Virus record (IMG/VR): IMGVR_UViG_3300029305_003192
From: a virus
Lineage: Duplodnaviria > Caudoviricetes
DNA: 64,000 nt
Reading direction: 5' to 3' (one strand)
Shown: in pieces, positions 8,302 through 55,373 of the stretch
How positions within the stretch are numbered: position 1 is the stretch's first letter
Layout of the letters: each line of letters starts with the position of its first letter
Position numbers and translations under genes: made by a program
The notes under the pieces: generated by a model
What the model saw: only the letters and a program-made list of their open reading frames with translations
Told to the model about the DNA's origin: nothing
The model's database searches: none

Positions 8302-8313
8302 AACAACGCTTTA
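8302..8313 (+). promoter_or_regulatory. Putative late promoter AACA-N6-TA
   Basis: AACA-ACGCTT-TA upstream of the 8341 structural gene; matches the AR9 late consensus. Confidence 0.65.
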
Positions 8314-11336: not shown

Positions 11337-11348
11337 AACAACGACATA
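11337..11348 (+). promoter_or_regulatory. Putative late promoter AACA-N6-TA
   Basis: AACA-ACGACA-TA upstream of the portal gene. Confidence 0.65.
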
Positions 11349-11382: not shown

Positions 11383-13650
11383 ATGGCTAAACGAAATACG
11401 AAAGGACCAATCAATACTCTGGTTCAGAAATTGATTCAGTCCATTGACCCCGATAAGATATCGGATTTAAATATAACCGACCGTGGTGACACGTTTAAGA
11501 AAATTATCAATAATGAGCTTGAGCTCACTAAAGGTATCTCCGATGGTAGTATCGTTGACTTCAGTCGTAGCCTGAATTCTGATATAGTAACCAAGAAGAA
11601 TGCCGGTGATAAGTGGGGAAGTCCAGAACTCACAGGAGATGTTATTGAGTATATCAATAAGAATACCTCTAGCATGTTCCAGGACTTTGCTGAGAATGAA
11701 CGAAACCGTTATATCCAGTATAATGATTACAACTTCATCTCGAAGTTCGTTCCAAAGATTGGTCAGGCGCTCAGAATGATACTGACCCATATCGTATCGT
11801 CTGATGACCTCACTAATACATTCAAGCGTCAGCTTGAATTCGGCTCACTCGATGTCGATGATACACAGACACTTAAGTTGGCACTCGAGAAGTTTGAGAA
11901 GGAAAACAAGCTCCTCTACAAGCTTGAGAATCTCGCATATAAGAATACACTCATCATGGGCGAATATTATGTGTACGCAATTTCATATAAGGACCTCTTT
12001 ACCAACTATGCCAAGCTTCTTGCTAAGAAGCGTGAAGCGTCTGGTAAGGTTAAAGATAAGAAAACTAAGAAGTCCATGGGTTATGCTATGGAGTCTTATA
12101 TGATAAGTGATGATGAGTATAAAGCTCTTGAATCGGCATACTCGAGCAGTGCCTCGGATAATGATCCATTGCGTAGCCCAAAATCCAGCTCCTTTAGAGA
12201 GGACTATGGTAGAGGTGCTGTTGTTACATGTTATGATTCCGAAATTCCATTCATTTTTGATGAAGATGTAGAATCGGATGACCCTAATCTCTATGAGAAG
12301 AAACTTGCTACTGCTCTCGAAGCAGTTGAGAGAAGTGGTGCCGCTCAGAAGACCAAGACATCTGTTGATGGAGTTGCCGATGGTACTTACGGACTCGGTG
12401 GTTCATATGATATCGCGGGTACATACATAAAGTTTATCTCCGCGAGAAATATCGCACCAGTAGAAGTACTTGGTAACGTTGTAGGCTACTTCTATATCAG
12501 CCATACCACAATTGATAAGGCTAAGAAGACTGTATCGATTGGTAATATTCATATCTCGTCTATGAAGAAGCGTTCTCCTATTGAGGATATCGCGAAATCT
12601 ATGACTGAGAAGATTGCTCAGAAGTTCTCTGATAAGTTCGTTGCATCCAATACTCAGTTTAAGCATCTGATTGCTGACTGCATCATGGCTGCAGGCGTAA
12701 CTAATACGGAGTATAAAGTACAGTTTATCCCTGCTGAGAATATCATACACTTTAAGGTGGATGATGATGAGAATTCTCGTGGTCAGTCTATCCTTAAGGA
12801 TGCCATCCAGCCAGCTAAGACTCTTGCAGCAGTTAATATGAGAAAGGTACTCAACTACCTTAATAAGTCTGGTGATAAGACCGTAATGACAGTAAGAGGT
12901 GGTAATGCTGACTTCAGCCGTAAGAATCAGGCCATGCGTATTATCCGTAATATGCAGGAGCAGAATATCGTCGTATCTGACCTGCTTGGCGATTGTAATA
13001 ATATCTTCCATAAGTATGCTGCAGATGGCAACATCATGATGCCAACATCAAGAACTGGTCAGAAACTGGTTGAACTTGAGAAGATGGATGGTCAGCAGAT
13101 TGATATGAACGTTGAGTGGGAGAAGGAGCAAGAGAATGAGATACTTACAGCGATGGGTGTCCCACCACTGCTTCTCGATACTCATCTTCAGGCAGACTTT
13201 GCCCGTGCATTTACTACGGCACATGTTGGTTTTGCCGGTACTATTGCTAAGTGGGATGGTGACCTCGAAGAACCAACAACTCAGCTATATAAGATAATTA
13301 TACAGAATCTGGACATCTCGGAAGAGCTTAAGACACGAGTGCTCCCAGTATTCGCGTTTAAGTTACCAAGACCGAAGTTTGCTGCAACACAGACAGGTGT
13401 TGAATCTATTCAGCAGGGTGTTCAGATGGCTGAGCAGTATATTCAGCTCAAATATGGTGAAAGTCCTGATGAAAATATGAAGGATGTTATCCGTGAAGTT
13501 AAGTTCGCAATTGTTCGTGAGAACTGTGCAACTATTCCTTGGGAAAGATACGACGAACTCGCTAAGAAGATTGAGATGGAATTCATTAGCATCAAGGATG
13601 ATGTTAAGGATACTAGTATGAGTTCGGACAGCGGAATGGATGAATTCTAA
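11383..13650 (+). CDS. Portal protein (jumbo-phage / T4 gp20-like)
   Basis: 755 aa; FIPAENIIHF..RGQSILKDAIQPAK..; ILTAMGVPPLLL; late promoter upstream. Confidence 0.75.
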   Translation: MAKRNTKGPINTLVQKLIQSIDPDKISDLNITDRGDTFKKIINNELELTKGISDGSIVDFSRSLNSDIVTKKNAGDKWGSPELTGDVIEYINKNTSSMFQDFAENERNRYIQYNDYNFISKFVPKIGQALRMILTHIVSSDDLTNTFKRQLEFGSLDVDDTQTLKLALEKFEKENKLLYKLENLAYKNTLIMGEYYVYAISYKDLFTNYAKLLAKKREASGKVKDKKTKKSMGYAMESYMISDDEYKALESAYSSSASDNDPLRSPKSSSFREDYGRGAVVTCYDSEIPFIFDEDVESDDPNLYEKKLATALEAVERSGAAQKTKTSVDGVADGTYGLGGSYDIAGTYIKFISARNIAPVEVLGNVVGYFYISHTTIDKAKKTVSIGNIHISSMKKRSPIEDIAKSMTEKIAQKFSDKFVASNTQFKHLIADCIMAAGVTNTEYKVQFIPAENIIHFKVDDDENSRGQSILKDAIQPAKTLAAVNMRKVLNYLNKSGDKTVMTVRGGNADFSRKNQAMRIIRNMQEQNIVVSDLLGDCNNIFHKYAADGNIMMPTSRTGQKLVELEKMDGQQIDMNVEWEKEQENEILTAMGVPPLLLDTHLQADFARAFTTAHVGFAGTIAKWDGDLEEPTTQLYKIIIQNLDISEELKTRVLPVFAFKLPRPKFAATQTGVESIQQGVQMAEQYIQLKYGESPDENMKDVIREVKFAIVRENCATIPWERYDELAKKIEMEFISIKDDVKDTSMSSDSGMDEF

Positions 13651-13701: not shown

Positions 13702-14751
13702 TTAGAACTTTATTGGTGATTCCAAGAAGAGCTCACCGAATCTATCGCTATCAATAGTAATGGTAGCTTGTCCTTCGTGTATATTGAATACCTGCCAATC
13801 TGCGGTAAACCCAGATATTCCGGCATGACCTCCACCATTACAGCACTCTCCAATAATGGTGGTGTCGTATTTATTAGAGTATAATGTATATGCCCATTCG
13901 CCTTTGTTGTTAATGTATTCCTTGATGGCGAAATCGTATTCTGTTTCCTTTCCGAATAACTCATAGTTGCCTACGTTAGTATTTACGATTACACAATTAC
14001 CAAAACAACATCCTTTACCTGTCTTAGCACTCTTTACCGTGAGTACGAATCGTCTGGCATTTCTCATAATGTGTGGATAAAGAATATTATTTTCATACCA
14101 TACGATTGATTTACCCTCGCTGATTATCTTATCCACAAAGTCTGTATCACCTTCAAGGCTATCCCATGCACATGGACTTTTAATCTTACTAAGATTCAAT
14201 CTCAGAGAACCCTTAAAGAATTCAAGTGAACCCTGATATTCATTCTTATATAAGTCGTGGTCATCCACGAGCTTATAAACCGTAGGCATACCTCTCATCG
14301 TGAAGTACATATCCCATGCCAAGAATGTTGCAGAGTGATCAACGTTTACATGTTTATGAAATGCACATGTGCCATTAATCTTATACTTCGATAAGCACCT
14401 TTCGCTTGACAGGTGATGGTCAATATAATCGACTCCGACATGTGGAAGTGATGCAATATCGTCAATAATTGCGAAATCGTCTACCGTTGAGATTGCTACA
14501 TCAACAATGATAACCTTCTTAAGGTTCTCGCATGCTGAAACTGCACCGGCGATATTCTTAGCAGCATTCTTAAGGCTGCTAATTGCCATTGGCCATATAT
14601 AACGGTCACTATAACCGCATTCAATGAGATGCTTAAGCGCAATACGTGCAGCAGCTGCTCCGTCATTATCATCATGAAATGCGATGATTGCTGTTGTATC
14701 ACTATTAAGTGTATTCACTGGGTATTTTCTTATAAAGTCATATCTAGTCAT
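13702..14751 (-). CDS. DHH/DHHA1 phosphoesterase (NrnA-like), paralog 1
   Basis: HDDNDG, IVDV, IDHH, DHDL and GGGHAGISGF motifs; start reassigned to the ATG at 14751 behind GGAGG. Confidence 0.85.
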   Translation of the reverse strand: MTRYDFIRKYPVNTLNSDTTAIIAFHDDNDGAAAARIALKHLIECGYSDRYIWPMAISSLKNAAKNIAGAVSACENLKKVIIVDVAISTVDDFAIIDDIASLPHVGVDYIDHHLSSERCLSKYKINGTCAFHKHVNVDHSATFLAWDMYFTMRGMPTVYKLVDDHDLYKNEYQGSLEFFKGSLRLNLSKIKSPCAWDSLEGDTDFVDKIISEGKSIVWYENNILYPHIMRNARRFVLTVKSAKTGKGCCFGNCVIVNTNVGNYELFGKETEYDFAIKEYINNKGEWAYTLYSNKYDTTIIGECCNGGGHAGISGFTADWQVFNIHEGQATITIDSDRFGELFLESPIKF

Positions 14752-14792
14752 TATTATTTTCCTCCATTTTATCTTATCCATACATACTTTAA

Positions 14793-14830: not shown

Positions 14831-15958
14831 TCAATTCATAGCTATTGCTTCATGTGCATTTTCCTGCCACTCCGTATCAATTTCTGTCTGCCTTTTCAGA
14901 TACATATATATTACATCTGACTCGAGGCCGGTTATTGTCATATAAGCCGTACCGTTGAGTTCTTTATTTGTATATACGTCATCCATGATGTTACGATTTA
15001 ATGTAAATCCACCGGCGCCTGGATGTCCACCACCACCGAAGAATTTACATATCGGTGTAATGTCATACTTATCAGAATATATGGTATATGTATAATCACC
15101 ATTCTTATTCTGGAAGTACTTGATGCACAGATCAAAGTCTTTATATCCCTCGCCATTCTTACCGAACAGTGCACTATTACCCCAACTGGAGTTGATAACT
15201 GCACAATTGTGGAAGTAAAATCTTTCGGCTTCAGATTCCAGCGCTACTTTGATTATCTGCATATTGCGACCGATCATAGGACATATTGAGCCATTGATGT
15301 ACTGACCGATAATATCACCGGCAGATACAATCTGGTCGATATGTTCACCCCAGATGGTTCCATCTGCAATCAGATCATCCCACAGAGGGTCCTTGATATC
15401 ATGCAGTGGGAAGAGTCCCGAACCATTGAAGAATTCGAGGGAACCTTCAAGTTCATGAGCGAAAATATCGTGGTCTGATATGAGCTCAAGTACCTGTGGT
15501 ACGTCTGTACTGATCAGTGCCTGCCAAGCAAGTTTAGCAGCAGATACATTTGTATCCAGTATTACATGCTGAAATAATGCCTTGTTATAATGGATACCGT
15601 TGTAGTCAATACCATCAAATAACTTCATATATGCATCAACTGATGTCTTATGATGATCAATCCAAGTCGTGTCGATGTCGAAGTTAACTTCGCGGATAAC
15701 CTCACCAAGACGAATAATATCTTCGGCTGTCGGGATACTGAGGTCAACGATAAAGATATGACCGATTTCATTTTCGTCGGTATTATATGAACGGATCATG
15801 TGCTCGATTAGATCAATCTGACCACCATTCAGTGTGACGTAGATACAGTTGATATCTTTGTCATCATAACCTAAAGCTCTGCATTTGTTGAGACATACTT
15901 TTGCTGCACCATAACCATCATTATCAGTATGGTGAAAGATAAGTGCGATTTTACCCAT
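14831..15958 (-). CDS. DHH/DHHA1 phosphoesterase, paralog 2
   Basis: HHTDNDG, IVDL, IDHHKT, DHDIF, GGGGHPGAGGF; shares GSLEFF.G with paralog 1. Confidence 0.88.
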   Translation of the reverse strand: MGKIALIFHHTDNDGYGAAKVCLNKCRALGYDDKDINCIYVTLNGGQIDLIEHMIRSYNTDENEIGHIFIVDLSIPTAEDIIRLGEVIREVNFDIDTTWIDHHKTSVDAYMKLFDGIDYNGIHYNKALFQHVILDTNVSAAKLAWQALISTDVPQVLELISDHDIFAHELEGSLEFFNGSGLFPLHDIKDPLWDDLIADGTIWGEHIDQIVSAGDIIGQYINGSICPMIGRNMQIIKVALESEAERFYFHNCAVINSSWGNSALFGKNGEGYKDFDLCIKYFQNKNGDYTYTIYSDKYDITPICKFFGGGGHPGAGGFTLNRNIMDDVYTNKELNGTAYMTITGLESDVIYMYLKRQTEIDTEWQENAHEAIAMN

Positions 15959-16184
15959 TATTATTTCCTCCTTTATTATATCCACCGTTTGTCATAGCGG
16001 TTGATAACGTCATAAGACCCATTAATGAATTCCAGGCCTTCTTACTTTTCTCTTCTTCCTCTCGGAAGAATTCTTCCCTCTCTTCGGGAGAGAGGGATTT
16101 GATATATTCTTCGCGGGCTTTCTGCTTACGTTCTTCATTAAGCTGATATTTGACTTGTTGGGCACGCTTTCCCATCTTAGCCAT
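15951..16184 (-). CDS. Small hypothetical protein
   Basis: GGAGG SD; packed into the operon. Confidence 0.6.
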   Translation of the reverse strand: MAKMGKRAQQVKYQLNEERKQKAREEYIKSLSPEEREEFFREEEEKSKKAWNSLMGLMTLSTAMTNGGYNKGGNNNG

Positions 16185-17259: not shown

Positions 17260-18378
17260 TTACCTCCATTCTATATCAATTGCATTATCATTGAACGTAA
17301 TAGTACAGTTGAGCTTAACGTTTAGAGCAACATTGATATGATCATCAGTTCGCTCAACTGTTATAAGTGGACTGGATACTGGTATCGACTCATCACTAGC
17401 CGGTTGAGTATTATCTGGTTCGGATACATCATGCACAGCACCAGCCTTTTTGTCATAAGGGTTTGCTACCGGTATCTCAGTTTTATATGGGTAGTTTTTC
17501 GGCTTTTTAATACCCTTATTATTTGCAGGAGGGTAATCAGGGATAATTTCATCATCCGAAACGACCAGATCATAATTTGGGGTATAGCTACTGAAATCAT
17601 AAGCTTTAAAGTCGTCTGCTCTGCTGGCTCCAGATATCCATGCTCTGACTGCACAACCAGTAACTCTGTACTTCTTTGCAATTTCATCTACTGGATATCC
17701 TTTAAGTATATCATTAGCAATCATATCAATATACTTATCCAATGGAAGTTTAACAACTTTTCCACCGCGTTTACTAGCCGGAGGTAGATGAGCTAATCTA
17801 TCTCCTACCACATGTTTCCATGTTTTACCATACCTGATATTCGATATAGTCATAGGATCTACGCCGAAATCAGTAGCGATGCTAGTGATACTATTATTAG
17901 CGAGAAGTCTCTGCACGATTACTTCGACATTATCCGCTGATAATTTAGTTGGGCGTTTGCTAATGATCCGCTTGGGTGTATCGGTATTTATTACCTCAGA
18001 TTTTGATTCATCATTTGGTGACTTGGTATCTATTACTGGTTCCGAATCTAATAAATCGACTACTTCGTTATCAGTCGTATCACTAACCGATTCATGTACA
18101 GTTTCACCCTCACTAATTTCTGGTATGACTTTCGGTTCGTCTTGTTCGTCCTTCTTGGCATTGCTTTCAATGACTTTGTAACCAGGCATTGTTGGATACA
18201 TAGTCCTAATTGATTCTTCCAGAGACTTCTTCCTTGAGAATTTCTCAGGATGTTGTCTAAATGCTTCAATGTCAGTTTTAAGTACGCCGGTCATTTTAGA
18301 GATGTCAGCGTTAGATGACCCTCTAGCAATCATTTCTTTAATCAGTTCGCGATTGCTACTGTCAATCTTGTTTGCCAT
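17260..18378 (-). CDS. Multi-HTH DNA-binding protein
   Basis: Three HTH-like segments: GSSNADISKMTGV, SITSIATDFGVDPMTISNIRYGKTWKHV and GYPVDEIAKKYRVTGCAVRAW. Confidence 0.6.
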   Translation of the reverse strand: MANKIDSSNRELIKEMIARGSSNADISKMTGVLKTDIEAFRQHPEKFSRKKSLEESIRTMYPTMPGYKVIESNAKKDEQDEPKVIPEISEGETVHESVSDTTDNEVVDLLDSEPVIDTKSPNDESKSEVINTDTPKRIISKRPTKLSADNVEVIVQRLLANNSITSIATDFGVDPMTISNIRYGKTWKHVVGDRLAHLPPASKRGGKVVKLPLDKYIDMIANDILKGYPVDEIAKKYRVTGCAVRAWISGASRADDFKAYDFSSYTPNYDLVVSDDEIIPDYPPANNKGIKKPKNYPYKTEIPVANPYDKKAGAVHDVSEPDNTQPASDESIPVSSPLITVERTDDHINVALNVKLNCTITFNDNAIDIEWR

Positions 18379-18440
18379 ATGGCAGTCCTCCTTTGATTTT
18401 TAAAGTCCTACTGGTAATTCCTACTACTACCAGCCTTATA

Positions 18441-18474
18441 ATGATATATGCTTTGCAATAGTATTTGAAAAGAC
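18441..18474 (-). promoter_or_regulatory. Putative early-type promoter (GTCTTT-N18-CATATATCAT)
   Basis: Recurrent intergenic motif upstream of non-structural genes. Confidence 0.55.
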
Positions 18475-18481
18475 ACTAAAA

Positions 18482-18513
18482 ATCCCCAGTAACTCTACGG
18501 AGTTACTGGGGAT
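18482..18513 (-). terminator. Terminator of the sheath-tube operon
   Basis: atccccagtaactc-tacg-gagttactggggat with an A tract on the left (U tract on - strand). Confidence 0.8.
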
Positions 18514-18519
18514 AATTTA

Positions 18520-19407
18520 TCAGTTACCTGTACCGTCAACACCCTGAAGGTCGAGCTGGTAGTTGATAGCATCTGCAGGATTTGCAGTGCCTTCAGCATC
18601 GAGAACCTTGAAGTCGAGGTAGTTGTATCTGAGCTTCTGCTTGGAGAGATAGTAGTAAGCGAGGTCGTTTACATATCTACCTTCATACTTGGTAACCTTG
18701 AAAGGAATATCAAGTGCAACTTCACCTCTAGAACCAGACTCGTAGTTGAGGTGGGACTTAGAGATTCTTGTTGGGAAGCAGTGTGCGAAGAGACAAGCAT
18801 ATTCGATATATCTTGCTGTAGGGTCGAGGTCCATGTAGATGAACTCACATGTGTGATACTTTTCACCGTAATCAACTGTGAGGGAATTCTCAGTGTTGTC
18901 AAGAGCACCATGATAGTGTGCAACACCGGACTGTGGGTCACGCATACCTGTCATCCAGGTTTCGATGAACTCACGTACAGGAGAACCAGACTGTTCGTAA
19001 AGTGTGATAGTGATTTCATCAGTATCATCCTTTACTGCGGAGATATTGGAGAATGACTGAGCTGCCCAACCACCTTCGAGAGTGATTACGTCAGCAGACA
19101 CGTCGCCGATACCTGTTACAGACTTGTAACCTGTTTCAATGTAGGACTTAAAGTTAGATGTAAGGCTCTTAAACTGAAGGTCCATGAACTTTGGTACTGT
19201 GTGCATGAAGAGTCTCGAAATACCAGGAACGTAAGGAGTCATGGAGTCGAGGTTCTTCTGTGTAACGTCAATACCCTGAATGAAGTAAGAGAACTTGTTA
19301 TAGTTTTTATCATTCTTCTTGATGGCCTTATCAGCCTCAGTTATGGAAGCGGACTGAAGTCTTGTACCATAGTTGCTGAGGGAGCCTGTAGTTGTATTAT
19401 CTGCCAT
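18520..19407 (-). CDS. Tail tube protein (probable)
   Basis: Directly downstream of the sheath; ITITLYEQSGSPV..W..DP..G....CFP pattern of T4 gp19-type tube proteins. Confidence 0.7.
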   Translation of the reverse strand: MADNTTTGSLSNYGTRLQSASITEADKAIKKNDKNYNKFSYFIQGIDVTQKNLDSMTPYVPGISRLFMHTVPKFMDLQFKSLTSNFKSYIETGYKSVTGIGDVSADVITLEGGWAAQSFSNISAVKDDTDEITITLYEQSGSPVREFIETWMTGMRDPQSGVAHYHGALDNTENSLTVDYGEKYHTCEFIYMDLDPTARYIEYACLFAHCFPTRISKSHLNYESGSRGEVALDIPFKVTKYEGRYVNDLAYYYLSKQKLRYNYLDFKVLDAEGTANPADAINYQLDLQGVDGTGN

Positions 19408-19427
19408 AATTCAATTTCCTCCTTCCC

Positions 19428-21440
19428 TTAAATATCAAGACGGTTAACGTCGATATCCACCTGGAGATACTTGATAAGAGGCTTGTTCTGGATAGCAATG
19501 TAGAGGTGGAGTACACCAAGCTCTGCTTCAGCTTCGGTTCTGTCGAAACGAGCTGTGATAGAACGTACCTGAGCCGCAGCATACTTAGATGTGAGGTTCG
19601 CAGTATCTCTGTTGAATGTATTGATATCGGATGTCTCATTGAAGTTGTACAGATATGTACAAATAAGCTTTTCAACGTCCTTCTTGATAGCAAGAGCGAT
19701 GAGAGCATTATTTTCTTCGGAGAGGTTGGATACAACATAGTCGTCGGATTCAGCAAACTGATTATCACCAACAAGACCAGAGTATCTGGTTGTCTGTGTA
19801 GCACGCATTACATTACCCTTAGGGTCGATTGCTGCATAGTTTACGTGAGCGTCAACGAGCTTGTCGAGGATATCCTGATCGATACTGTCGTCGAACACTG
19901 GGAAGACAGTATTAGGAAGGAATGAGTCAATTACACCATACTTGGAGTTAGCATATGGAATATGATAACCGCCATAGCCGTTCCAGTGTTTAGGAAGAGC
20001 CTGAGCAAGGTGATATGTAGAAGATACTGTAATAACCTTCTTGTTATATGGGTCCTTAATCTTACCCATATATCCGTCGATAGACATTGTCCACGTGTTA
20101 ATGATATTATCATATGGTATGGTATCATTATATACGTTTTCACGTGACTGGAGGTCAGTACCGAGGTCGAAGTAAATTCTGAAGTCCTGAGTTCTACCAG
20201 CGCCAGGATCACCAGTAACGAGACCGGCAAGAGCCTCCTTAACTTTAGTGCTGAAGTCTGCATCACATGCATAATCCAGAGGACAACGATACTTAGAAAG
20301 GATATTTCTATCGATATTACCCTTGAATGCCTCGATAAACTGTGCATCAATAGCTGCCTGTCTGTCAGGGTTAGTCATATCGAATGCACCGTCAGTACCT
20401 CCGGCGAGTTTAATACCGTAAGGGTCATCGAAGTGGAATGGACTCGAAGAATGAATCTCATATCCAGTAATACCAACATCACCCTCTGCACTTGTAACGG
20501 TGAATGGCTTAGCAGCTTCCTTAGAGATACCGAGGATTGGGTCAAACGTATATGTTGTCAAGGCTGTTTCCTTATCGATGTACTGCTGATACTTAGTGAA
20601 AATGGTATCAAGTACGGATGTGTTTACATACATGTCAATGAGGTTAGAACCTTCAGATCCACCGTATGTATTAATCACGTTCTCCATGAAGAGAGAAGTT
20701 GAACCTACAATAGCATCAGGATGAAGCGTACATCTGTACTGCTCAACCTGTTTTGTACCCTCATAGATATCAATGTAGTAATTCTTATACTTGGATGTCT
20801 TGTCGGCACGACTGTGGTTGGAAATACGAACAGAGAAGTTGTTACCACATTCGCCTCTACCCTTATATGCGAATGACATAAAGTGCATAACCTGCCACTC
20901 TTCATTTACTACAGGTTCATCGGGCAATTCCAGAGTTTGGATGGCGTAAATTGTATCATCGCCGATAGCCTTACACTCTTCAAGAACATCTTCAACTTTC
21001 GGAGCGAGATTCTTGAGCTGGTTAAGATCACGAAGATCGGTAGAATGCTTAGTGATGAAACGAATGTACAATTTCTTACCAACCTGCTTATAGCAGATGT
21101 AAATGTGTGCGTTTGCATACATAGCATCTTTAGCTGTGAGTCGAAGAACCTGGAGGGTTACAAGACCTGTGGACGCAGCGGCTCTTGTGTTAAGGTGAGC
21201 CTGACCATACTTGGAGCAAGGACCGTGACCAAAGCGATCGTCGTATTCATCAATACCATGTTCAATGGTAATAATCTTACCGTCTTCACCCTTTGGGGAG
21301 AGGCCTACAGCCAAAAACTTATAGTTACCTGATGTATCGGTCGTATATCTTCTGACAGAATTGTCATTGATACGGGTCTCTATATGTGGATAGAGATGAC
21401 CTGGCAGTGTAACTGAAGTAATTGTAGCTATATTTGCCAT
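19428..21440 (-). CDS. Tail sheath protein
   Basis: 670 aa; N-terminal HPHIETRINDNS..GLSPKG, LAGGTDG, sheath-like C-terminus (LSEENN..YLYNFN..LHLYIAI..IKYLQVDIDVNR). Confidence 0.8.
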   Translation of the reverse strand: MANIATITSVTLPGHLYPHIETRINDNSVRRYTTDTSGNYKFLAVGLSPKGEDGKIITIEHGIDEYDDRFGHGPCSKYGQAHLNTRAAASTGLVTLQVLRLTAKDAMYANAHIYICYKQVGKKLYIRFITKHSTDLRDLNQLKNLAPKVEDVLEECKAIGDDTIYAIQTLELPDEPVVNEEWQVMHFMSFAYKGRGECGNNFSVRISNHSRADKTSKYKNYYIDIYEGTKQVEQYRCTLHPDAIVGSTSLFMENVINTYGGSEGSNLIDMYVNTSVLDTIFTKYQQYIDKETALTTYTFDPILGISKEAAKPFTVTSAEGDVGITGYEIHSSSPFHFDDPYGIKLAGGTDGAFDMTNPDRQAAIDAQFIEAFKGNIDRNILSKYRCPLDYACDADFSTKVKEALAGLVTGDPGAGRTQDFRIYFDLGTDLQSRENVYNDTIPYDNIINTWTMSIDGYMGKIKDPYNKKVITVSSTYHLAQALPKHWNGYGGYHIPYANSKYGVIDSFLPNTVFPVFDDSIDQDILDKLVDAHVNYAAIDPKGNVMRATQTTRYSGLVGDNQFAESDDYVVSNLSEENNALIALAIKKDVEKLICTYLYNFNETSDINTFNRDTANLTSKYAAAQVRSITARFDRTEAEAELGVLHLYIAIQNKPLIKYLQVDIDVNRLDI

Positions 21441-21515: not shown

Positions 21516-21527
21516 TAAATAACTGTT
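21516..21527 (-). promoter_or_regulatory. Putative late promoter AACA-N6-TA
   Basis: AACA-GTTATT-TA on the - strand upstream of the sheath. Confidence 0.65.
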
Positions 21528-44257: not shown

Positions 44258-44385
44258 AACAATAATAATAATGGGTTGTAGGACATGTCACAGGCCTGCG
44301 CGGCAACCCTCTTATTTCCTTTTCTATTGTACCACGGAGCCCCACCCTAGCGGGACCCGTGGTACTTAGTTATATAAGCACAAAT

Positions 44386-44416
44386 ATCCCGAGTAAGCAT
44401 TTAGCTTACTCGGGAT
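44386..44416 (-). terminator. Terminator after the polyprotein gene
   Basis: atcccgagtaagc-attta-gcttactcgggat. Confidence 0.7.
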
Positions 44417-44426
44417 TTAAAGTGTC

Positions 44427-47400
44427 TTATGGGACCATGTAACCGCCAGTTAATTCGATATCTTCAGAGTCTTCCCAGTCTGCATTATATGTCAAACTAG
44501 AATGTTCCAAGGCTTCGATATTCTGGGTCTTAATAATATCATCGAATATTTCCTTCGTACGAATCTCTGCCTTGAGTTTATCGTAATTCTTAATCATACC
44601 ATTACATACGAAGAATGTACCGCGTAAATCTGCAAGACTACCTGGGCTATACAGGCTTGGGTCTCTATCGAGAATACCCTGCTTACCAGAGTTAATTACG
44701 AGAGCAACAAACTGAGAGCAGAAGAGATTCTCTGGATCAGTCTTAGGGTTATTGAAGATATAGTTGATGAGTCCTCCTACATTGTAACGGTACTTCTCAC
44801 GATGAGCGAAGATGTTATCAACTGTATTCTTCACTGCCTTTATCTGAGACTCCTCAAAGAACATGACGTGGAGTGCATACTCAGTGCTTGGAGGATATGA
44901 GAAATGATTTGCCTTTGGATTGAACGATTCAATACCTGCACCGAATCCTCGGGCATTAATGATACCTTTCTTGACAACCTTATTACCAAACGTGAAGCAC
45001 TCACCCATACTTGGGTCAAATGAGATGAACGAATGTGACCAGTTCTCCTTAGTAAAACTACGAATAACTGTACCAAGTGGTGAGATATTCTTCATAAGTC
45101 CTATATAAAGCGGATAATATCTCTTGCCCTGATAGGACTGCCATAAGCGGTCGTTAAACTTAATGGGTTCATATACAAACTCGGGCATTGCTGACTCCTT
45201 TGCTACTATTCCAGAATAGGGCACGTTTGGAGCCCAGCCTGTCATTACCGAATCCTCGGCAGGTTTATAATATTTACCGAATCGATTATTCTCGCCAATA
45301 TTGATATCAGTAATACCGAACTCGGTAATCTTAGCATTGATTGCATCTGCAAGTTCCTTCTCTCTGTCCTCATTGACATAATTAAAGAACTTGATAGCAA
45401 GCATAACATGCTCAGCATCTGGCATTGGGTACTTCTTTATATCAGGAAGTCCAAAATCAGTACGTTCCTTAGAAGTTAATGCAGACTCAAGTGCAAGAAG
45501 ATATCCTTTATCGTTATCATGGGTTGCATATTTAGCATTAATTCCCTTGTCAGTTATAGGCTTAAATCCATATTTAGTATACATCTTATGTGCTACTTCG
45601 TTATCACTGTCGACTCTAAGAGCATTGCCCTTCATAGTCTTAACCGCGAAATTGAGTAACTGACTGCCAAGACCATAACCCTGGTACTCTGGACGAATTT
45701 CGAGGGTTGAAATCCAGTTATAATCTGGGTCTTTAAAGCTCACACAAGCATCACCAACGAGTTTATCGCCATCTAACCAGATACGGGAATCATGGGTTTC
45801 ATCTGCCGGCCATGCGTGCTTAAGCATTTTAGATTCTGCTTCATATTTCTTAAGCAGTGCCGGTGTCATCTTAAGACACGTGAAATCGGACAACGACTTC
45901 TTACCTTTAGATGTATAATCTTTAGATATGTTAGATTTCATTGATGATTCAGTAGCCGGCTGTGGTACATGCTCAAATACACTAGCTTCTTCAACTTCGT
46001 CCGCATGGAAGATATCCCATATTACAGATGATGCTGATGATTCAAGTGCTGTGGACTTCTCAGCATTGGTACGCATAAACTTTCTTAACTTATCAAGATT
46101 GTGATCATCCTGTGCATACCACGCCTTCATCTCGGCACGCTGTTGTTCGTCGTAGACATTGGCCTCGCGAATAGTCATACGTTTTAACGAAGTATGTTTT
46201 GACGTACCCTTAATAATCATAGGCTTGTCCTTGAGATATTCATGATCTATTCTCGCTGAGATATGAATGCCTTCCCATATAAATAACAACTCAGGTCTCT
46301 TGGTACAGTAATCAAGAAGCCAATTAAATGCACTATTGAACTTTGCGCGTTTTGTATCAAAAGAATCATCTTTCTCATAAACGCATCCTGTTTCAGCATA
46401 CATCTTACGGAATATCTGACTGACATTTTTCTGATATCCATTAGGATTCCATTTCTCATCCTGACCAAATTCACGTGTTATACGGTCGAGTTCAATATAG
46501 AACGCATCGTGAGATTTCGAAAGTTCTTCACCAAGGGTGGATTTACCAGAACCGGAAAGACCTGTGATATAGAGAATATTCTGACCTTTCTTTCTCTGCC
46601 ACTTATCGATATTGAAGTACTCGTCCTTATGATTGATAAATGCTGACTCAGTAGCAGGAGCCATACGATACATTACTTCAGTCCTACCCATATACTCATC
46701 AGTAATCTGAAGCCCATATTTCTCATACATACCAATGGCCGGAGTATTTGATTTGCGTACTTCAAGATACTTACCTCCGAGATTATTAATGGCGTAATCC
46801 AAAAGCATCGTTCCATATCCCTTACGACGTTCATTTTCATCAACCACAAGAAGTTCAATACAACCCGTATCCTGTGATATACTGAAGAAGCCTACGGGAT
46901 ATGATTTACCATCATAAAGACCGTAGCATGATATTTTGCTGAATGCCTTTGGGTTGGCTTTAAATCGTAAAAGATATGCGTCTCGCGTCATGCTAAGTGT
47001 TGATGAATCAGGAATCTTTTCGATGTCGGATTTGGTCATTGGTTTTATCTTAATACTACCAGATGCCGCTTCGGTAGCCGGAAGAAGTTCCATCTCAACT
47101 CGCTTAACCATATCATCATCTATAGCCAGCTTGCACTCAAGAAGGAATCTATAGAAGTCCTGATATTCCTTATTAACCACCTTGAAGTAGTTAACCTTAG
47201 GATTCTTAATCATTACTTCGTCCTTAACCTTTTCGGTCTTTCTGTCATATTCGACAATATGTGTGGCATGACTCTCGTTATCACCGCCATCCTTAATCTC
47301 TATCTCAAGATTGAGGTCTGGGATATAGAAGTCAGGAATATAGAAGTGCTGCTTACCTTCATACATGTATGTGTAAGTATGAGGGGATGGTCCCATAATA

Positions 47401-47855
47401 TCCTTCGACTTGAGTCCGAGTACGAACTCACATGTCATAAGGAAATCCTTCTCATAAGATGAGAGGTATAATACAGAACCACCATCTCTGAATTTATACG
47501 GCTTGCTCTTAGAAGCAAGCATTTTTCTCTGCTGGTCTGGGTCATTTAAGAGGTGTGGTACACCATATTTATCGACCATTCTCTTCTTTGCCTCAGCACA
47601 GTATTTCTTTTTGCAATTAGGGTCCGAGCAGTACCTGGAGTATTTACCAGTAGTCTCATTCCATTCAGTTGGTTTATGACACTGCACACATGAACCATGT
47701 GTCTTTCCAGTGTCCACATAATAAAAATAACGAGCAACTGAATATCCATCCGGAATTGTATCCGGATGGAGTCTTTCAATATGCTCACCCCAGCCTGAGA
47801 GAGATTTGAATCTCATACCACAGACAGGGCATTTATATACACTAACCTTTCTCAT
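44427..47855 (-). CDS. Multi-enzyme protein (Zn-finger + PD-(D/E)XK nuclease, GNAT, P-loop kinase, GNAT, small helical domain, permuted NlpC/P60); candidate protease-processed virion polyprotein
   Basis: CPVC..H....H; YLSSYE..YIPDF..EIEIK; RRKGYG..N.PAI.MYEKYG; GLSGSGKS; YQGYGLG..N.VA..MYTKYGF; FGLP..KKYPMPDAEHV; WSHSFI..Y.YN..FCSQFV; linkers PATEA/PATES/ALES/AKES. Confidence 0.8.
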   Translation of the reverse strand: MRKVSVYKCPVCGMRFKSLSGWGEHIERLHPDTIPDGYSVARYFYYVDTGKTHGSCVQCHKPTEWNETTGKYSRYCSDPNCKKKYCAEAKKRMVDKYGVPHLLNDPDQQRKMLASKSKPYKFRDGGSVLYLSSYEKDFLMTCEFVLGLKSKDIMGPSPHTYTYMYEGKQHFYIPDFYIPDLNLEIEIKDGGDNESHATHIVEYDRKTEKVKDEVMIKNPKVNYFKVVNKEYQDFYRFLLECKLAIDDDMVKRVEMELLPATEAASGSIKIKPMTKSDIEKIPDSSTLSMTRDAYLLRFKANPKAFSKISCYGLYDGKSYPVGFFSISQDTGCIELLVVDENERRKGYGTMLLDYAINNLGGKYLEVRKSNTPAIGMYEKYGLQITDEYMGRTEVMYRMAPATESAFINHKDEYFNIDKWQRKKGQNILYITGLSGSGKSTLGEELSKSHDAFYIELDRITREFGQDEKWNPNGYQKNVSQIFRKMYAETGCVYEKDDSFDTKRAKFNSAFNWLLDYCTKRPELLFIWEGIHISARIDHEYLKDKPMIIKGTSKHTSLKRMTIREANVYDEQQRAEMKAWYAQDDHNLDKLRKFMRTNAEKSTALESSASSVIWDIFHADEVEEASVFEHVPQPATESSMKSNISKDYTSKGKKSLSDFTCLKMTPALLKKYEAESKMLKHAWPADETHDSRIWLDGDKLVGDACVSFKDPDYNWISTLEIRPEYQGYGLGSQLLNFAVKTMKGNALRVDSDNEVAHKMYTKYGFKPITDKGINAKYATHDNDKGYLLALESALTSKERTDFGLPDIKKYPMPDAEHVMLAIKFFNYVNEDREKELADAINAKITEFGITDINIGENNRFGKYYKPAEDSVMTGWAPNVPYSGIVAKESAMPEFVYEPIKFNDRLWQSYQGKRYYPLYIGLMKNISPLGTVIRSFTKENWSHSFISFDPSMGECFTFGNKVVKKGIINARGFGAGIESFNPKANHFSYPPSTEYALHVMFFEESQIKAVKNTVDNIFAHREKYRYNVGGLINYIFNNPKTDPENLFCSQFVALVINSGKQGILDRDPSLYSPGSLADLRGTFFVCNGMIKNYDKLKAEIRTKEIFDDIIKTQNIEALEHSSLTYNADWEDSEDIELTGGYMVP

Positions 47856-49217: not shown

Positions 49218-49229
49218 TAATGGTTTGTT
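49218..49229 (-). promoter_or_regulatory. Putative late promoter AACA-N6-TA
   Basis: AACA-AACCAT-TA between a terminator and the 49189 start. Confidence 0.65.
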
Positions 49230-49242
49230 ACGGGGAATAAAT

Positions 49243-49274
49243 ATGAGGGTTACCCATTGTAGGGTAACCCTCAT
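49243..49274 (-). terminator. Terminator hairpin
   Basis: atgagggttaccc-attgta-gggtaaccctcat. Confidence 0.75.
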
Positions 49275-53644: not shown

Positions 53645-54214
53645 TTAGTGGGCAACGGATACCGCAGATGCAATAGCCTCGCGTAACTGAGTGGTTGTAG
53701 TAATTTGCTCTCCCAGTGTCAGAGGTGCACTACCAATTGTTAAAACGCACCTCTCAACCGCTTTAACCATATTACCATTACCCGTAACTACAAACGGTAA
53801 TTGGAATGTGACTATATCAGCAAGTTCCTCGGCGAGTATTTGCTTCGCATGCTGCATCATACGACCTCCAGAACGCATCAGATTAATGAGCGGATAGGCC
53901 GATTCATGTATCAGATAACAATCGTCCGGTCTTGGTAATGGGCGTTCATCGACGTTAATTTTATCATATATCTGCAAGTATACATCTAGGTTACCACTAC
54001 CTTTCCCAGGTGTTGCTAACCATACTTCCATATATTTGATCGGGTTTCCGTCCAGATAAATGACAAGGTTGACTAATCTCTGAGTATGATTCAAATCCTT
54101 ATTATAGCGGGCCTCTTCTTCAGAGATGGCATATAAAGCCATCTCTACACTAGACTGAGGAGTCAATAAATTTCCCACATCAATACAGTTGATTTTTCTT
54201 ATAGGCGATGCCAT
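53645..54214 (-). CDS. Hypothetical, member 3 of the array
   Basis: YPLINLMRS..AKQILAEEL..LP. Confidence 0.7.
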   Translation of the reverse strand: MASPIRKINCIDVGNLLTPQSSVEMALYAISEEEARYNKDLNHTQRLVNLVIYLDGNPIKYMEVWLATPGKGSGNLDVYLQIYDKINVDERPLPRPDDCYLIHESAYPLINLMRSGGRMMQHAKQILAEELADIVTFQLPFVVTGNGNMVKAVERCVLTIGSAPLTLGEQITTTTQLREAIASAVSVAH

Positions 54215-54777
54215 TATACTCTCCTCCTTTTAGTGGTTTCGGGAATATCATCGGTTTCAGCACCATACCTATGTACGAGTGTATGAATGATATCAGGTTT
54301 CATATCTGCATTCTGGAAAGCATTATCCTTGCCATTACCGTCTGTATCAAGAATGCGAATAACACCCATTTTGTCTTTGATTACTATTGGAAGTAACAGG
54401 TTGGCAAACATCCATCTGATTTCTTCTTCGATAATCATTGCAGTATATTCAGTATACCTGCTATTGCCACATACACGTGTGAGCTGTCTGATTGGGAGCT
54501 GGTCAGAGGTGCAAAGAATTGTCTTTTCCATACCCCTCATGGTAAACATCTGGATGCAGAATGTGTCTATCGCGTCATTGCTCGAGTTAGGTACCAGCTC
54601 CAAATCTACATGGATTGTAGCAATCTCCCCACCCGACTCGTTGTCAATGTTTATCTCAAGCATCGATGGTGCTTGTTTCACTTCTCCCTCTGTAACGGCC
54701 TCTCTTCCAACCCAGACACAGATGCCTGAGTCGGTTTTAAATATTTCCTCTGTTTCGATATAGAATGCATGTTTCAT
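54214..54777 (-). CDS. Hypothetical, member 2 of the array
   Basis: LPIRQLTRVC..TEYTAMIIEEEI..LLP..H.YGA. Confidence 0.7.
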   Translation of the reverse strand: MKHAFYIETEEIFKTDSGICVWVGREAVTEGEVKQAPSMLEINIDNESGGEIATIHVDLELVPNSSNDAIDTFCIQMFTMRGMEKTILCTSDQLPIRQLTRVCGNSRYTEYTAMIIEEEIRWMFANLLLPIVIKDKMGVIRILDTDGNGKDNAFQNADMKPDIIHTLVHRYGAETDDIPETTKRRRV

Positions 54778-54796
54778 TTCAAATACCTCCATTATT

Positions 54797-55342
54797 TTAG
54801 CAACTCATAAGTGTTATCGAATCTGCACCATACGCGTGTATCAGGATATAACGTATCGCGTCGATGAGATTGAAATTGTTAATATAATCTGCCTGCTTAC
54901 CCTGAGGTCTGATTAGGTGTCGTTTATGAGTAGGATTCATATCCGTGACTATCATGGGAAGCATCTGCGTTGTAATAGCATGTTTGATCTCATGCTCCAG
55001 CATATAACATACATACTCAGTACCGCGTCCATTACATAACTTGGTTAGCTGTACTCCCGGAATAAATGGTGTCGCACAGATAAAATCCGTCCCGCCATCA
55101 CTATTCGCAACTCTTGATATCGTGGCGTGGAAATCACCGTACTCACTCTTATCGATATCAATATTAAATACATCAATCACCGGTCCTTCGGGATATGTGT
55201 GAATACATAACTGACATACTCTTTTATCCTTGCCGAATACTCCTCCCATGTACGACTCCGCCGATGATTGGATTGTGAACACTGGGTCACAACTGTCAAA
55301 TGTGGGGTCATCTGAAATTACCATCCATGCTTTTTGCATCAT
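54797..55342 (-). CDS. Hypothetical, member 1 of the array
   Basis: IPGVQLTKLC..TEYVCYMLEHEI..MLP..HAYGA. Confidence 0.7.
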   Translation of the reverse strand: MMQKAWMVISDDPTFDSCDPVFTIQSSAESYMGGVFGKDKRVCQLCIHTYPEGPVIDVFNIDIDKSEYGDFHATISRVANSDGGTDFICATPFIPGVQLTKLCNGRGTEYVCYMLEHEIKHAITTQMLPMIVTDMNPTHKRHLIRPQGKQADYINNFNLIDAIRYILIHAYGADSITLMSC

Positions 55343-55373
55343 AATTTTTACTCTCCTTTGATTCATATTTTAT

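Follow-up and report, generated by a model that had tools for sequence, protein, structure and literature searches.

The locus analysed here raises the question of what is gained by joining six distinct modules in one protein with a short recurring motif at the joints. The gene, P0001, lies in a window of 64,000 nucleotides (the whole stretch of viral DNA that was analysed), and an identical protein is also encoded on a 239.6-kb metagenome contig. We consider it likely that P0001 is a capsid-cargo polyprotein of an uncultured AR9/PBS1-like jumbo phage, cut by the head protease.

Modules and joints of the P0001 chain

An earlier note on this DNA had described six modules in the 1142-aa ORF, and the reading frame, domain matches and folds bear this out. 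The order is zinc-finger PD-(D/E)XK nuclease, GNAT, P-loop kinase, GNAT, DUF6582-like module and YiiX-type permuted papain-like domain:

44427..47855, minus strand: candidate polyprotein gene P0001, single ORF, 1142 aa
47070..47855, minus strand: module 1 (aa 1-262), C2H2 and C4 zinc fingers and PD-(D/E)XK nuclease, the conserved 'carrier'
46647..47069, minus strand: module 2 (aa 263-403), GNAT acetyltransferase, Pfam Acetyltransf_10/FR47 at 313-387
46041..46646, minus strand: module 3 (aa 404-605), P-loop kinase with AAA_18/AAA_33 matches
45948..46040, minus strand: 31-aa spacer peptide (aa 606-636), disordered, between sites 3 and 4, pLDDT <50 in both models
45486..45947, minus strand: module 4 (aa 637-790), second GNAT, Pfam Acetyltransf_1 (E 2e-26) at 679-766
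45195..45485, minus strand: module 5 (aa 791-887), small helical DUF6582-like module
44505..45194, minus strand: module 6 (aa 888-1117), YiiX/YaeF-type permuted papain-like (Peptidase_C92-like) domain

Module 1 matches the Pfam families zf-C2H2 (aa 6-30) and DUF7487 (PF24308; aa 73-188, 28.9 bits against a cut-off of 27) and the PHROG endonuclease family phrog_15137 (aa 6-242, E 4e-53). Its AlphaFold model has high pLDDT across aa 1-242 and the D...(D/E)xK catalytic motif is intact, with D175, E186 and K188 invariant in 25 relatives. The 'T4 gp4/TnsA-like' label first attached to this nuclease could not be confirmed, the closest match by fold being Vsr with a Z score of only 8.1. The two GNATs have AcCoA-binding motifs at 343-348 (R-R-K-G-Y-G) and 724-730, and PF00583 matches P0001 above threshold over two stretches (92.8 bits). 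The region of the first GNAT is poorly modelled; the fold of the second is confirmed (VIA Z 11.5 across aa 657-830), with RimI/Naa-type protein N-acetyltransferases as its nearest neighbours (Foldseek 5isv, 2cnm). Module 3 has a Walker A motif, G-L-S-G-S-G-K-S, at 432-439 and a fold like that of the T4 polynucleotide kinase domain (1ltq, Z 10.0) and nucleotide kinases. The DUF6582 (PF20223) match of module 5 is weak (E 0.003-0.06), and the same family is annotated on many relatives. For module 6, the best fold matches by VIA are 2if6_B (Z 13.0, rmsd 2.8, 144 aligned) and 3kw0_A (Z 12.2), and His941 and Cys1046 are invariant, His preceding Cys as a permuted catalytic dyad. With the gathering score as threshold, P0001 has no match to PF05708 (Peptidase_C92), and 7 of 23 relatives match it weakly (best E 0.005); judged from its model, module 6 is a distant YiiX-YaeF/Peptidase_C92 relative by fold and not a family member by sequence.

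The motif positions first reported for P0001 were all correct on re-checking the sequence (arrows mark the predicted cut):

47067..47081, minus strand: linker site 1, P-A-T-E↓A (aa 259-263)
46644..46658, minus strand: linker site 2, P-A-T-E↓S (aa 400-404), exactly on the boundary of the confidently modelled kinase fold
46038..46049, minus strand: linker site 3, A-L-E↓S (aa 603-606), pLDDT dropping from 93 to 31 across it
45945..45959, minus strand: linker site 4, P-A-T-E↓S (aa 633-637)
45483..45494, minus strand: linker site 5, A-L-E↓S (aa 788-791), where the last GNAT strand ends
45192..45203, minus strand: linker site 6, A-K-E↓S (aa 885-888), within the pLDDT<50 segment 866-893
44502..44513, minus strand: site 7, A-L-E↓H (aa 1115-1118), preceding a 25-aa disordered acidic tail

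The six A-x-E-[SA] sites compare with about 0.6 expected, a count reached in 0 of 200,000 shuffles. In a comparison of ORFs within the phage's 72-kb contig, P0001 has five A-x-E-S motifs against 0.32 expected, and the ORF that comes next, encoding the portal protein, has three A.E[SA] sites. The AlphaFold models place all seven A-x-E sites at module or domain edges or in disordered segments, so the proposed coincidence of motifs with module boundaries holds. Segments with pLDDT<50 in the first model are exactly 243-404 and 606-645, so that the kinase domain is enclosed to the residue by E403↓S404 and E605↓S606; those of the second model are 596-640, 866-893, 961-969 and 1119-1142, with E636, E887 and E1117 inside them or at their edges. 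E790↓S791 is the last residue of the second GNAT fold and, since it abuts the last strand in the model, may be poorly accessible to a protease, while E262 falls in a poorly modelled stretch where the structural context of site 1 is uncertain. Elsewhere in the chain, a motif-like G-I-E-S (974-977; A-H-E-S in relatives, conserved) lies inside the YiiX-like fold, adjoining a low-confidence loop, an observation that speaks against the cleavage reading.

Relatives of P0001 and their linkers

At least 760 representative relatives (762 at E<=1e-30) have the nuclease first and variable cargo behind it. The nuclease is N-terminal in 150 of 150 representatives among the matches listed and also in 134 near-length relatives, and the cargo includes GNAT, kinase, SNF2 helicase, NUDIX, metallophosphatase, transglutaminase-like, DUF6582 and YiiX-like modules. 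Nearly all relatives have x-x-E-[SGA] 10-25 aa past the nuclease, and at the position of site 7 they show A-Y-E↓A. The suggestion that homologues of the nuclease would have different cargo joined by the same kind of linker is thus upheld across the relatives; we found no description of this nuclease-carrier polyprotein family in the literature. Standalone proteins annotated as 'endonuclease fused to N-terminal Zn finger' (AR9 g233, PBS1, phiR1-37 g237, Staphylococcus jumbo phages) are 35-43% identical to aa 1-240 of P0001 but end after the nuclease (~240-265 aa), without the cargo that P0001 has.

When 70 relatives were cut in silico at A.E↓[SAG], the fragments matched one another end to end within narrow length ranges, as in the DUF6582-like family (91-97 aa across 27 proteins, ordinal positions 1-10), the family of the first GNAT (n=15, 141-161 aa) and the kinase family (n=44, ordinal positions 1-7). 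Fragment order was variable, with only the nuclease fixed, at position 0. Of the homology breakpoints, 20.7% lie no more than 5 aa from a motif, compared with 4.0% of random positions, and there is a breakpoint peak at aa 400-409 of P0001, linker site 2. The linkers double as standard junctions for evolutionary module swapping, much as the earlier note had supposed in calling the ATES linker a slot for exchanging cargo. In an independent set of 127 new representatives, the cargo regions show enrichment of 5.0x for A-x-E-S and 5.1x for V-x-E-S, followed by I (2.9x) and L (1.8x) at P3, while the other seven P3 residues tested range from 0.7x to 1.5x; enrichment at P1' is 3.2x for S, 1.8x for A and 1.5x for G. 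Across 288 polyprotein linkers the commonest P4 residue is P, S occupies P1' in 230, and either A or V stands at P2'. The predicted enrichment is thus strong in these polyproteins, and the motif is present also in the portal, the capsid protein and the protease tail. All the computational checks suggested in the earlier note favour its reading.

Module swapping at linkers is demonstrable, and it is equally a feature of a different explanation, in which P0001 is an uncleaved multidomain 'polyvalent' enzyme that works or is delivered whole and A-x-E-S is a linker or recombination junction. Full-length multi-enzyme polyvalent proteins are known, for example N4 virion RNAP, ArdC and TraC1 (PMC5512222). 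We nevertheless think this unlikely. The motif is conserved at the peptide level with varying codons: the three P-A-T-E sites of P0001 differ synonymously, so selection acts on the peptide. Moreover, the 31-aa spacer (aa 606-636) between two sites would have no obvious role in an uncleaved protein.

The head protease and its other predicted substrates

Cleavage by the head protease fits these joints. Because its joints match the cutting site of the head-maturation protease, the chain probably enters the capsid and is then cut into separate enzymes. The cognate S77/S80 protease and capsid gene were not found in the phage's 72-kb contig (~30% of the genome), and the protease link therefore rests on the relatives and the portal. 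Such a protease is present in the relatives G003, G004, G005, G007 and G008; the clade's enzyme belongs to phrog_3014, head maturation protease (PF03420/PF20034), with His and Ser invariant. In 115 of 120 protease homologues a P-[AV]-[ML]-E↓S-A site lies 30-60 aa from the C-terminus (with P at P4 in 99, A at P3 in 81 and V there in 32, S at P1' in 107, and A at P2' in 98), and this extended consensus is common to the polyprotein linkers and the clade protease's own C-terminal site. In SPN3US, gp245 cuts after A-X-E and prefers S at P1' and either V or A at P4; it removes its own C-terminal propeptide of 64 residues, and the portal loses a 254-aa propeptide (PMC10052503). That P4, P3, P1' and P2' preferences agree with both the protease's own conserved site and SPN3US specificity argues further against an uncleaved enzyme.

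The same phage encodes a second candidate:

11383..13650, plus strand: portal protein of the same phage, by tblastn to AR9 and BpSp 'portal vertex protein'

This portal has A-x-E-[SA] at aa 235-239, 248-252 and 311-315, its T-A-L-E↓A aligns with T-A-L-E↓S of the G004 portal, and it is predicted to be another substrate of the same protease. In G004, a complete relative, the capsid protein precursor has A-V-E↓S-A at 102-106, where homology to the AR9 capsid protein begins; an unannotated 431-aa protein, a candidate scaffold, has nine sites (p 1e-12), and the polyprotein ranks second among the ORFs by motif enrichment.

Another protease could be responsible, namely the chain's own papain-like module (YiiX-like or transglutaminase-like) or some enzyme other than the prohead protease. 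For polyvalent proteins, processing has been proposed to go through in-built peptidases (PMC5512222), and 55 of the 70 motif-rich relatives have a papain-like module (YiiX-like in 54, transglutaminase-like in 29). However, the remaining 15 have neither, and the same motif occurs in the portal, capsid protein and protease, all of which lack such modules. Solved YiiX/NlpC-P60 relatives are amidases and are not known as Glu-specific endopeptidases, which also counts against self-processing. We therefore regard this route as very improbable and retain the prohead protease as the preferred candidate.

Predicted late expression and comparison with known systems

P0001 is the second gene of a two-gene unit, P0002-P0001, flanked by hairpin terminators:

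49245..49272, minus strand: hairpin and T-run ending the upstream transcription unit, as read from the sequence
49218..49229, minus strand: AACA-N6-TA, a late promoter motif of AR9 type (non-virion RNAP), 28 nt upstream of the start of P0002
47876..49189, minus strand: upstream gene P0002, 437 aa, with a 20-nt gap to the polyprotein gene
44382..44414, minus strand: hairpin and T-run terminator directly past the polyprotein stop codon, as read from the sequence

It had been claimed that P0001 is co-transcribed with a head-like gene from an AACA-N6-TA promoter. The promoter and the co-transcription are supported; the 'head-like' description was conjecture, and Pfam and PHROG searches of P0002 gave no match. 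P0002 may still be head-like: an Atlas lead below threshold points to internal head proteins of phiKZ (phiKZ_IP, 0.87), and the protein has a conserved N-terminal leader in which A-I-E↓S (aa 8-11) and A-M-E↓E (31-34) are invariant, then an S/T/N-rich linker and a helical body. The promoter motif, which follows the AR9 late consensus (PMC7598289), is rarer than expected in the window (20 against 49) and occurs there also upstream of the portal, virion protein and sheath genes; it is found in 35 of 53 distinct upstream regions of relatives against a background of 9%, and AR9 g233 likewise has it. These sequence patterns suggest that P0001 would be expressed late with the structural genes.

Late expression alone would also suit an unpackaged cytoplasmic fusion, perhaps of a nuclease and accessory enzymes that act on host or phage DNA, in which the motif enrichment would have nothing to do with head assembly. 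The genes around P0001 serve replication and transcription (NAD ligase, RNAP beta-like, UvsX-like) and P0001 lies outside the head cluster, which counts against packaging; two shallow virion proteomes, with 23 and 15 proteins detected, did not include the standalone nuclease homologues BpSp gp288 and DC4_00081, respectively; and P0001, unlike known substrates, has no N-terminal propeptide or capsid-targeting leader, the chain starting with a folded zinc finger and the first site lying at aa 262. Set against this, the standalone homologue phiR1-37 g237 is annotated 'phage structural protein', the promoter type is found also at the genes for portal, sheath and virion protein, P0002 in the same transcription unit has an N-terminal leader that looks cleavable, and the motif statistics and protease match tell against this reading too. 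We give the cytoplasmic fusion little credence and favour a packaged polyprotein.

Among known kinds, those nearest to P0001 are Alt and the internal proteins of T4, the ejection proteins of phiKZ/SPN3US and the 'polyvalent proteins'. Like the substrates of phiKZ gp175/SPN3US gp245 (MEROPS S80), the P0001 family combines an A/S/G-x-E-type motif (S preferred at P1', V or A at P4 in the known systems) with a related S77/S80 protease in relatives, genes predicted to be late and the motif in portal and capsid precursors. Known substrates, however, lose an N-terminal propeptide (the protease a C-terminal one), whereas P0001 has up to seven predicted sites between whole enzyme domains and its N-terminal module is a conserved enzyme instead of a discarded propeptide. 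T4 IPI-III and Alt have a capsid-targeting sequence, are cleaved by gp21 after L/I-x-E and are injected with the DNA. Head-packed enzymes or effectors, trimming by a prohead protease after Glu and injection are likewise proposed for P0001; distant relatives have [VIL]-x-E-S linkers like the T4 sites, and P0002 has a short leader ending A-I-E↓S. But T4 places one cargo per gene behind a leader of ~10 aa, and P0001, in which no such leader cut after x-x-E was found, has several behind a 262-aa nuclease carrier. Polyvalent proteins are large chains of unrelated effector-type domains with predicted DNA co-delivery (Iyer et al., 2017; PMC5512222), and they share with the P0001 family GNAT, SNF2 helicase, peptidase and nuclease domains and extensive mosaicism among relatives. 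Their processing was proposed to use in-built zincin-like MPTase domains, whereas the joints of P0001 have the motif of a trans-acting head protease; P0001 has no match to a zincin-like (MPTase) domain and has the YiiX-like papain-fold module, though 15 of the 70 motif-rich relatives have no papain-like module of any kind. The family also differs in its carrier, a ZnF-REase-fold nuclease, and in its phages, which are AR9-like jumbo phages.

We infer the packaging, cleavage and ejection of P0001 and the targets of its enzymes as follows. The phage's non-virion RNA polymerase would transcribe P0001 late, together with P0002, and the N-terminal zinc-finger nuclease would act as the constant carrier that brings the chain into the prohead. 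There, an S77/S80-type head-maturation protease would cut after Glu at [P]-A-x-E↓[S/A] linkers, freeing the nuclease, first GNAT, P-loop (polynucleotide/nucleotide-type) kinase, 31-aa spacer, second GNAT, DUF6582-like module and YiiX-like amidase/peptidase, which might then be available for ejection with the DNA.

There is an even chance, in our view, that this reflects general plug-and-play capsid loading in AR9-like jumbo phages, in which a constant nuclease carrier takes any number of cargo enzymes on head-protease linkers, and thus one late gene would deliver a customisable set of injected enzymes. If true, that set would comprise acetyltransferases, kinases, SNF2 helicases, NUDIX enzymes, phosphoesterases and papain-like amidases, and the family's hundreds of cargo modules would amount to an inventory of first-minute effectors for host takeover or anti-defence.

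Architecture of the polyprotein and placement of its linkers

The polyprotein P0001 is encoded by a single uninterrupted ORF of 1142 aa on the minus strand of the window (44427-47855), with genes for an NAD-dependent ligase, an RNAP beta-like subunit and a UvsX-like recombinase as neighbours. The window belongs to a 72,250-bp IMG/VR phage contig estimated to represent 30% of the genome, and a 239.6-kb metagenome contig carries a protein identical to P0001; a megablast search of the phage collection returned no DNA match. The nearest cultured relatives are AR9/PBS1, phiR1-37, Listeria LPJP1 and the Staphylococcus jumbo phages. These match aa 1-240 of P0001 only (35-43% identity), and the matching protein in each case is a standalone 'endonuclease fused to N-terminal Zn finger'.

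Modules of P0001 detected by profile search (positions in the protein)
aa 6-30, zf-C2H2
aa 6-242, phrog_15137 endonuclease (E 4e-53)
aa 73-188, DUF7487 (above threshold)
aa 313-387, GNAT1
aa 432-439, Walker A of a P-loop NTPase/kinase
aa 679-766, GNAT2
aa 799-832, DUF6582 (weak match)

The structure was predicted as two AlphaFold models, one per half, built on family alignments; two half-length alignments were used, full-length MAFFT alignment of the shuffled fragments being inconsistent. Together with profile and fold searches, these models bear out the domain list of the earlier note. The kinase module resembles the T4 polynucleotide kinase domain and nucleotide kinases (Z 10.0-9.6), and the modelled GNAT2 resembles RimI/Naa-type protein N-acetyltransferases. 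The C-terminal module is predicted to adopt a YiiX/YaeF-type permuted papain-like fold (2if6_B, Z 13.0; 3kw0_A, Z 12.2), with His941 and Cys1046 invariant and a weak sequence match to Peptidase_C92. Across 25 diverse relatives the nuclease keeps D175, E186, K188 and both zinc-binding clusters unchanged. The label 'T4 gp4/TnsA-like' given to this domain was not confirmed, its top fold match being Vsr (Z 8.1). GNAT1 (aa 263-403) was poorly modelled by AlphaFold.

All seven linker motifs lie where the earlier note had placed them. P0001 contains six A-x-E-[SA] sites against approximately 0.6 expected, and none of 200,000 shuffles reached six; a contig-wide excess was rejected, as the other ORFs hold about 15 sites versus about 12 expected. 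It had been proposed that the motifs lie between folded domains, and most of the predicted cuts (↓) do fall at domain edges or in disordered segments of the models. Low-confidence segments span aa 243-404 and 606-645 in the first-half model, and aa 596-640, 866-893, 961-969 and 1119-1142 in the second-half model. In these models E403↓S404 and E605↓S606 bound the kinase fold, disordered linkers hold E636 and E887, E790↓S791 marks the final residue of GNAT2 and E1117 begins a disordered tail. E262 follows the final nuclease helix, and its structural context is uncertain because GNAT1 is badly modelled. A G-I-E-S sequence (aa 974-977; window ~44925-44936) is a caveat: it falls within the YiiX-like fold, adjoining a loop of low confidence, and many relatives have A-H-E-S at this position. 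Cleavage here, if it occurs, would be internal and perhaps activating; alternatively, the site may go unused. We also considered that the linkers might be pure DNA recombination scars. The three P-A-T-E sites of P0001 are written in different synonymous codons, and the constraint therefore acts on the peptide, which led us to reject this explanation.

A constant nuclease with variable cargo

An initial IMG/VR scan returned standalone nucleases only, that of the relative G003 included. A word-indexed search recovered 134 relatives of P0001 (628-1999 aa), and an exhaustive profile search 762 representatives (E<=1e-30). Among the matches listed from these 762, 150 of 150 carry the nuclease N-terminally, and 122 of 127 new representatives exceed 300 aa. 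The cargo behind it includes GNATs, P-loop kinases, 700-aa SNF2 helicases, NUDIX, metallophosphatase, transglutaminase-like, DUF6582-like and YiiX-like domains, and several unknowns. Almost all relatives carry x-x-E-[SGA] 10-25 residues past the nuclease, with A at P3 for the lineage of P0001; other lineages have V, I, M or L. The 127 new representatives form an independent set. In their cargo parts, enrichment is 5-fold for A-x-E-S and V-x-E-S, 2.9-fold for I-x-E-S and 1.8-fold for L-x-E-S, and the seven other P3 residues tested give 0.7-1.5; the preferred P1' residue is S (3.2x), followed by A and G.

In 20.7% of cases a BLAST homology breakpoint is no more than 5 aa away from A.E[SA], compared with 4.0% for random positions (five-fold). 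When 70 motif-rich relatives are cut at A.E↓[SAG], the fragments match one another end to end and fall within narrow length ranges: kinase (44 members), DUF6582-like (27; 91-97 aa), YiiX-like (17), SNF2 (17), GNAT types and others. Cargo fragments occupy ordinal positions 1-12, invariably behind the nuclease (54 members). The variable cargo on a common type of linker that the earlier note had anticipated among relatives of the nuclease is thus found. Such polyproteins could, with low probability, be self-processed by their papain-like modules, but these modules are absent from 15 of the 70 motif-rich relatives. Cleavage in trans by a head protease is the favoured reading.

Further ORFs of the window also stood out, the first two entries below by comparison with the relatives G003, G004 and G007.

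3-8252 (+), giant ORF of >2749 aa, open at the window start, without a PHROG match; 28-31% identity over 370-540 aa to ORFs of ~3300-3700 aa in all three relatives
13702-14781 (-) and 14831-15985 (-), adjacent DHH-phosphoesterase paralogues (phrog_4771) with no counterpart in the three relatives
54214-55366 (-), part of a run in which five ORFs of 179-193 aa follow one another; 54214-54792 and 54797-55366 are neighbouring weak paralogues (29% over 90 aa), and the remaining ORFs of the run are unrelated by BLAST

Predicted late expression and the head-maturation protease

In AR9, late promoters follow the consensus A(-11)ACA-N6-U-A/G(+1) (PMC7598289). The corresponding AACA-N6-TA is strongly under-represented in the window, with 20 copies against 49 expected and at least 20 in 100 of 100 shuffles. 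It occurs upstream of portal, virion structural protein and sheath genes, and 28 nt ahead of the start of P0002, the gene upstream of P0001.

AACA-N6-TA copies, several just 5' of virion genes, and the upstream gene
8302-8313 (+), AACA-N6-TA
11337-11348 (+), AACA-N6-TA
21516-21527 (-), AACA-N6-TA
49218-49229 (-), AACA-N6-TA ahead of P0002
47876-49189 (-), P0002, of no known family

Such rarity and placement fit an AR9-type late promoter that is counter-selected elsewhere. Among relatives, the motif is present in 35 of 53 distinct upstream regions, against a background of 9%, mostly 27-38 nt before the start. Hairpin terminators stand ahead of the P0002 promoter motif and after the P0001 stop codon, and the two genes are separated by 20 nt. 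As read from the sequence, the motif, flanking hairpins and close spacing support the earlier proposal of a promoter and transcription unit shared with the upstream gene.

P0002 has only five close homologues, and P0002-like genes stand beside the polyprotein in its closest subclade only. The family shares a conserved, acidic/hydrophobic leader of 34 aa in which A-I-E↓S (8-11) and A-M-E↓E (31-34) are invariant; behind it lie an S/T/N-rich linker that is hypervariable and a helical body. This is how a cleavable head-protein leader would be expected to look, and P0002 may be an internal head protein. It has no Pfam or PHROG match and no match in phages; an Atlas lead to phiKZ_IP (phiKZ internal head proteins), whose score of 0.87 lies below the reliable range, was unconfirmed in Pfam scans of the family.

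The SPN3US protease gp245 cuts after A-X-E, favouring V or A at P4 and S at P1', and removes its own 64-residue C-terminal propeptide as well as a 254-residue portal propeptide (PMC10052503); phiKZ gp175 (MEROPS S80) cleaves after S/A/G-x-E (PMC5694885). Complete IMG/VR relatives encode a protease matching Peptidase_S77/S80 and phrog_3014, with His and Ser invariant in five sequences, and a protease-profile search returned 426 homologues. Of 120 homologues, 115 have a P-[AV]-[ML]-E↓S-A site at a distance of 30-60 aa from the C-terminus, and a second conserved site near the C-terminus reads F-E-T-V-M-E↓S (AR9-like clade proteins P0122-P0241; loci L110, L111, L112 and L113); the pair suggests two-step removal of a tail of ~40-70 aa. 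In the polyprotein linkers P is the commonest P4 residue, S occupies P1' in 230 of 288 and P2' is A or V, an extended consensus common to linkers and protease C-terminal site, of which A-P-A-T-E↓S-A in P0001 is a near copy. A PF03420 search of the 72,250-bp contig (~30% of the genome) found no protease. None of the 426 protease homologues could be linked to this phage, and P0205, a candidate among them, sits in another gene order.

Other predicted head proteins carry comparable sites. The portal (window 11383-13650, +) has more A.E[SA] sites than any contig ORF after P0001, with three A-x-E-[SA] at aa 235-315, before the conserved body. T-A-L-E↓S in the portal of G004 aligns with T-A-L-E↓A in that of the window within an otherwise diverged stretch, and by analogy with SPN3US gp81 the window portal likely has a long N-terminal propeptide. 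G004, a complete 220-kb genome, is syntenic with the window around the polyprotein. In its capsid precursor, A-V-E↓S-A stands at 102-106, at the start of homology to the AR9 capsid protein, and its 1681-aa polyprotein is the second most motif-enriched ORF. An unannotated 431-aa protein without a PHROG match (L114, the G004 sequence, 18314-19609, -) has nine A-x-E-[SG] sites (p 1e-12) and three tandem M-S-A-F-E-S units ~21 aa apart; it looks like a scaffold or core protein degraded at maturation. Separately, the G004 RNAP beta-like subunit (phrog_2986; L114:4459-6096, +) has A-M-E↓A at aa 59-62 and profile homology from aa 70, and may carry the propeptide of a virion RNAP subunit.

Proposed packaging and the meaning of the family

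The sole virion evidence for the family is a GenBank note that labels phiR1-37 g237 a structural protein; two shallow virion proteomes do not list the standalone nuclease homologue. P0001 lacks an N-terminal leader, and its nuclease carrier would target it to the prohead, a role we infer because the nuclease is always in first position. Capsid cargo is the best available interpretation and passed every computational test run; we regard packaging, cleavage and ejection of P0001 as reasonably probable. The same logic applies to T4 Alt and internal proteins and to the phiKZ/SPN3US ejection proteins, and the 'polyvalent proteins' described by Iyer et al. (PMC5512222) have this kind of architecture. 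A full-text literature search found no description of the polyprotein family, DUF7487 or DUF6582. The novelty lies in a combination of three features: the nuclease carrier is constant, a single gene encodes many cargo enzymes, and every joint bears a trans-acting head-protease motif.

If P0001 is packed and cut, the protease motif would be a sequence rule for the enzymes that a giant phage injects with its DNA, and hundreds of candidate injected effectors would be named with their boundaries already marked. The family would also offer a template from nature for filling large capsids with foreign proteins, each placed behind the carrier and between two linkers. Finally, the family illustrates that module exchange can co-evolve with protease specificity: P3 changes from A to V, I or L across lineages.
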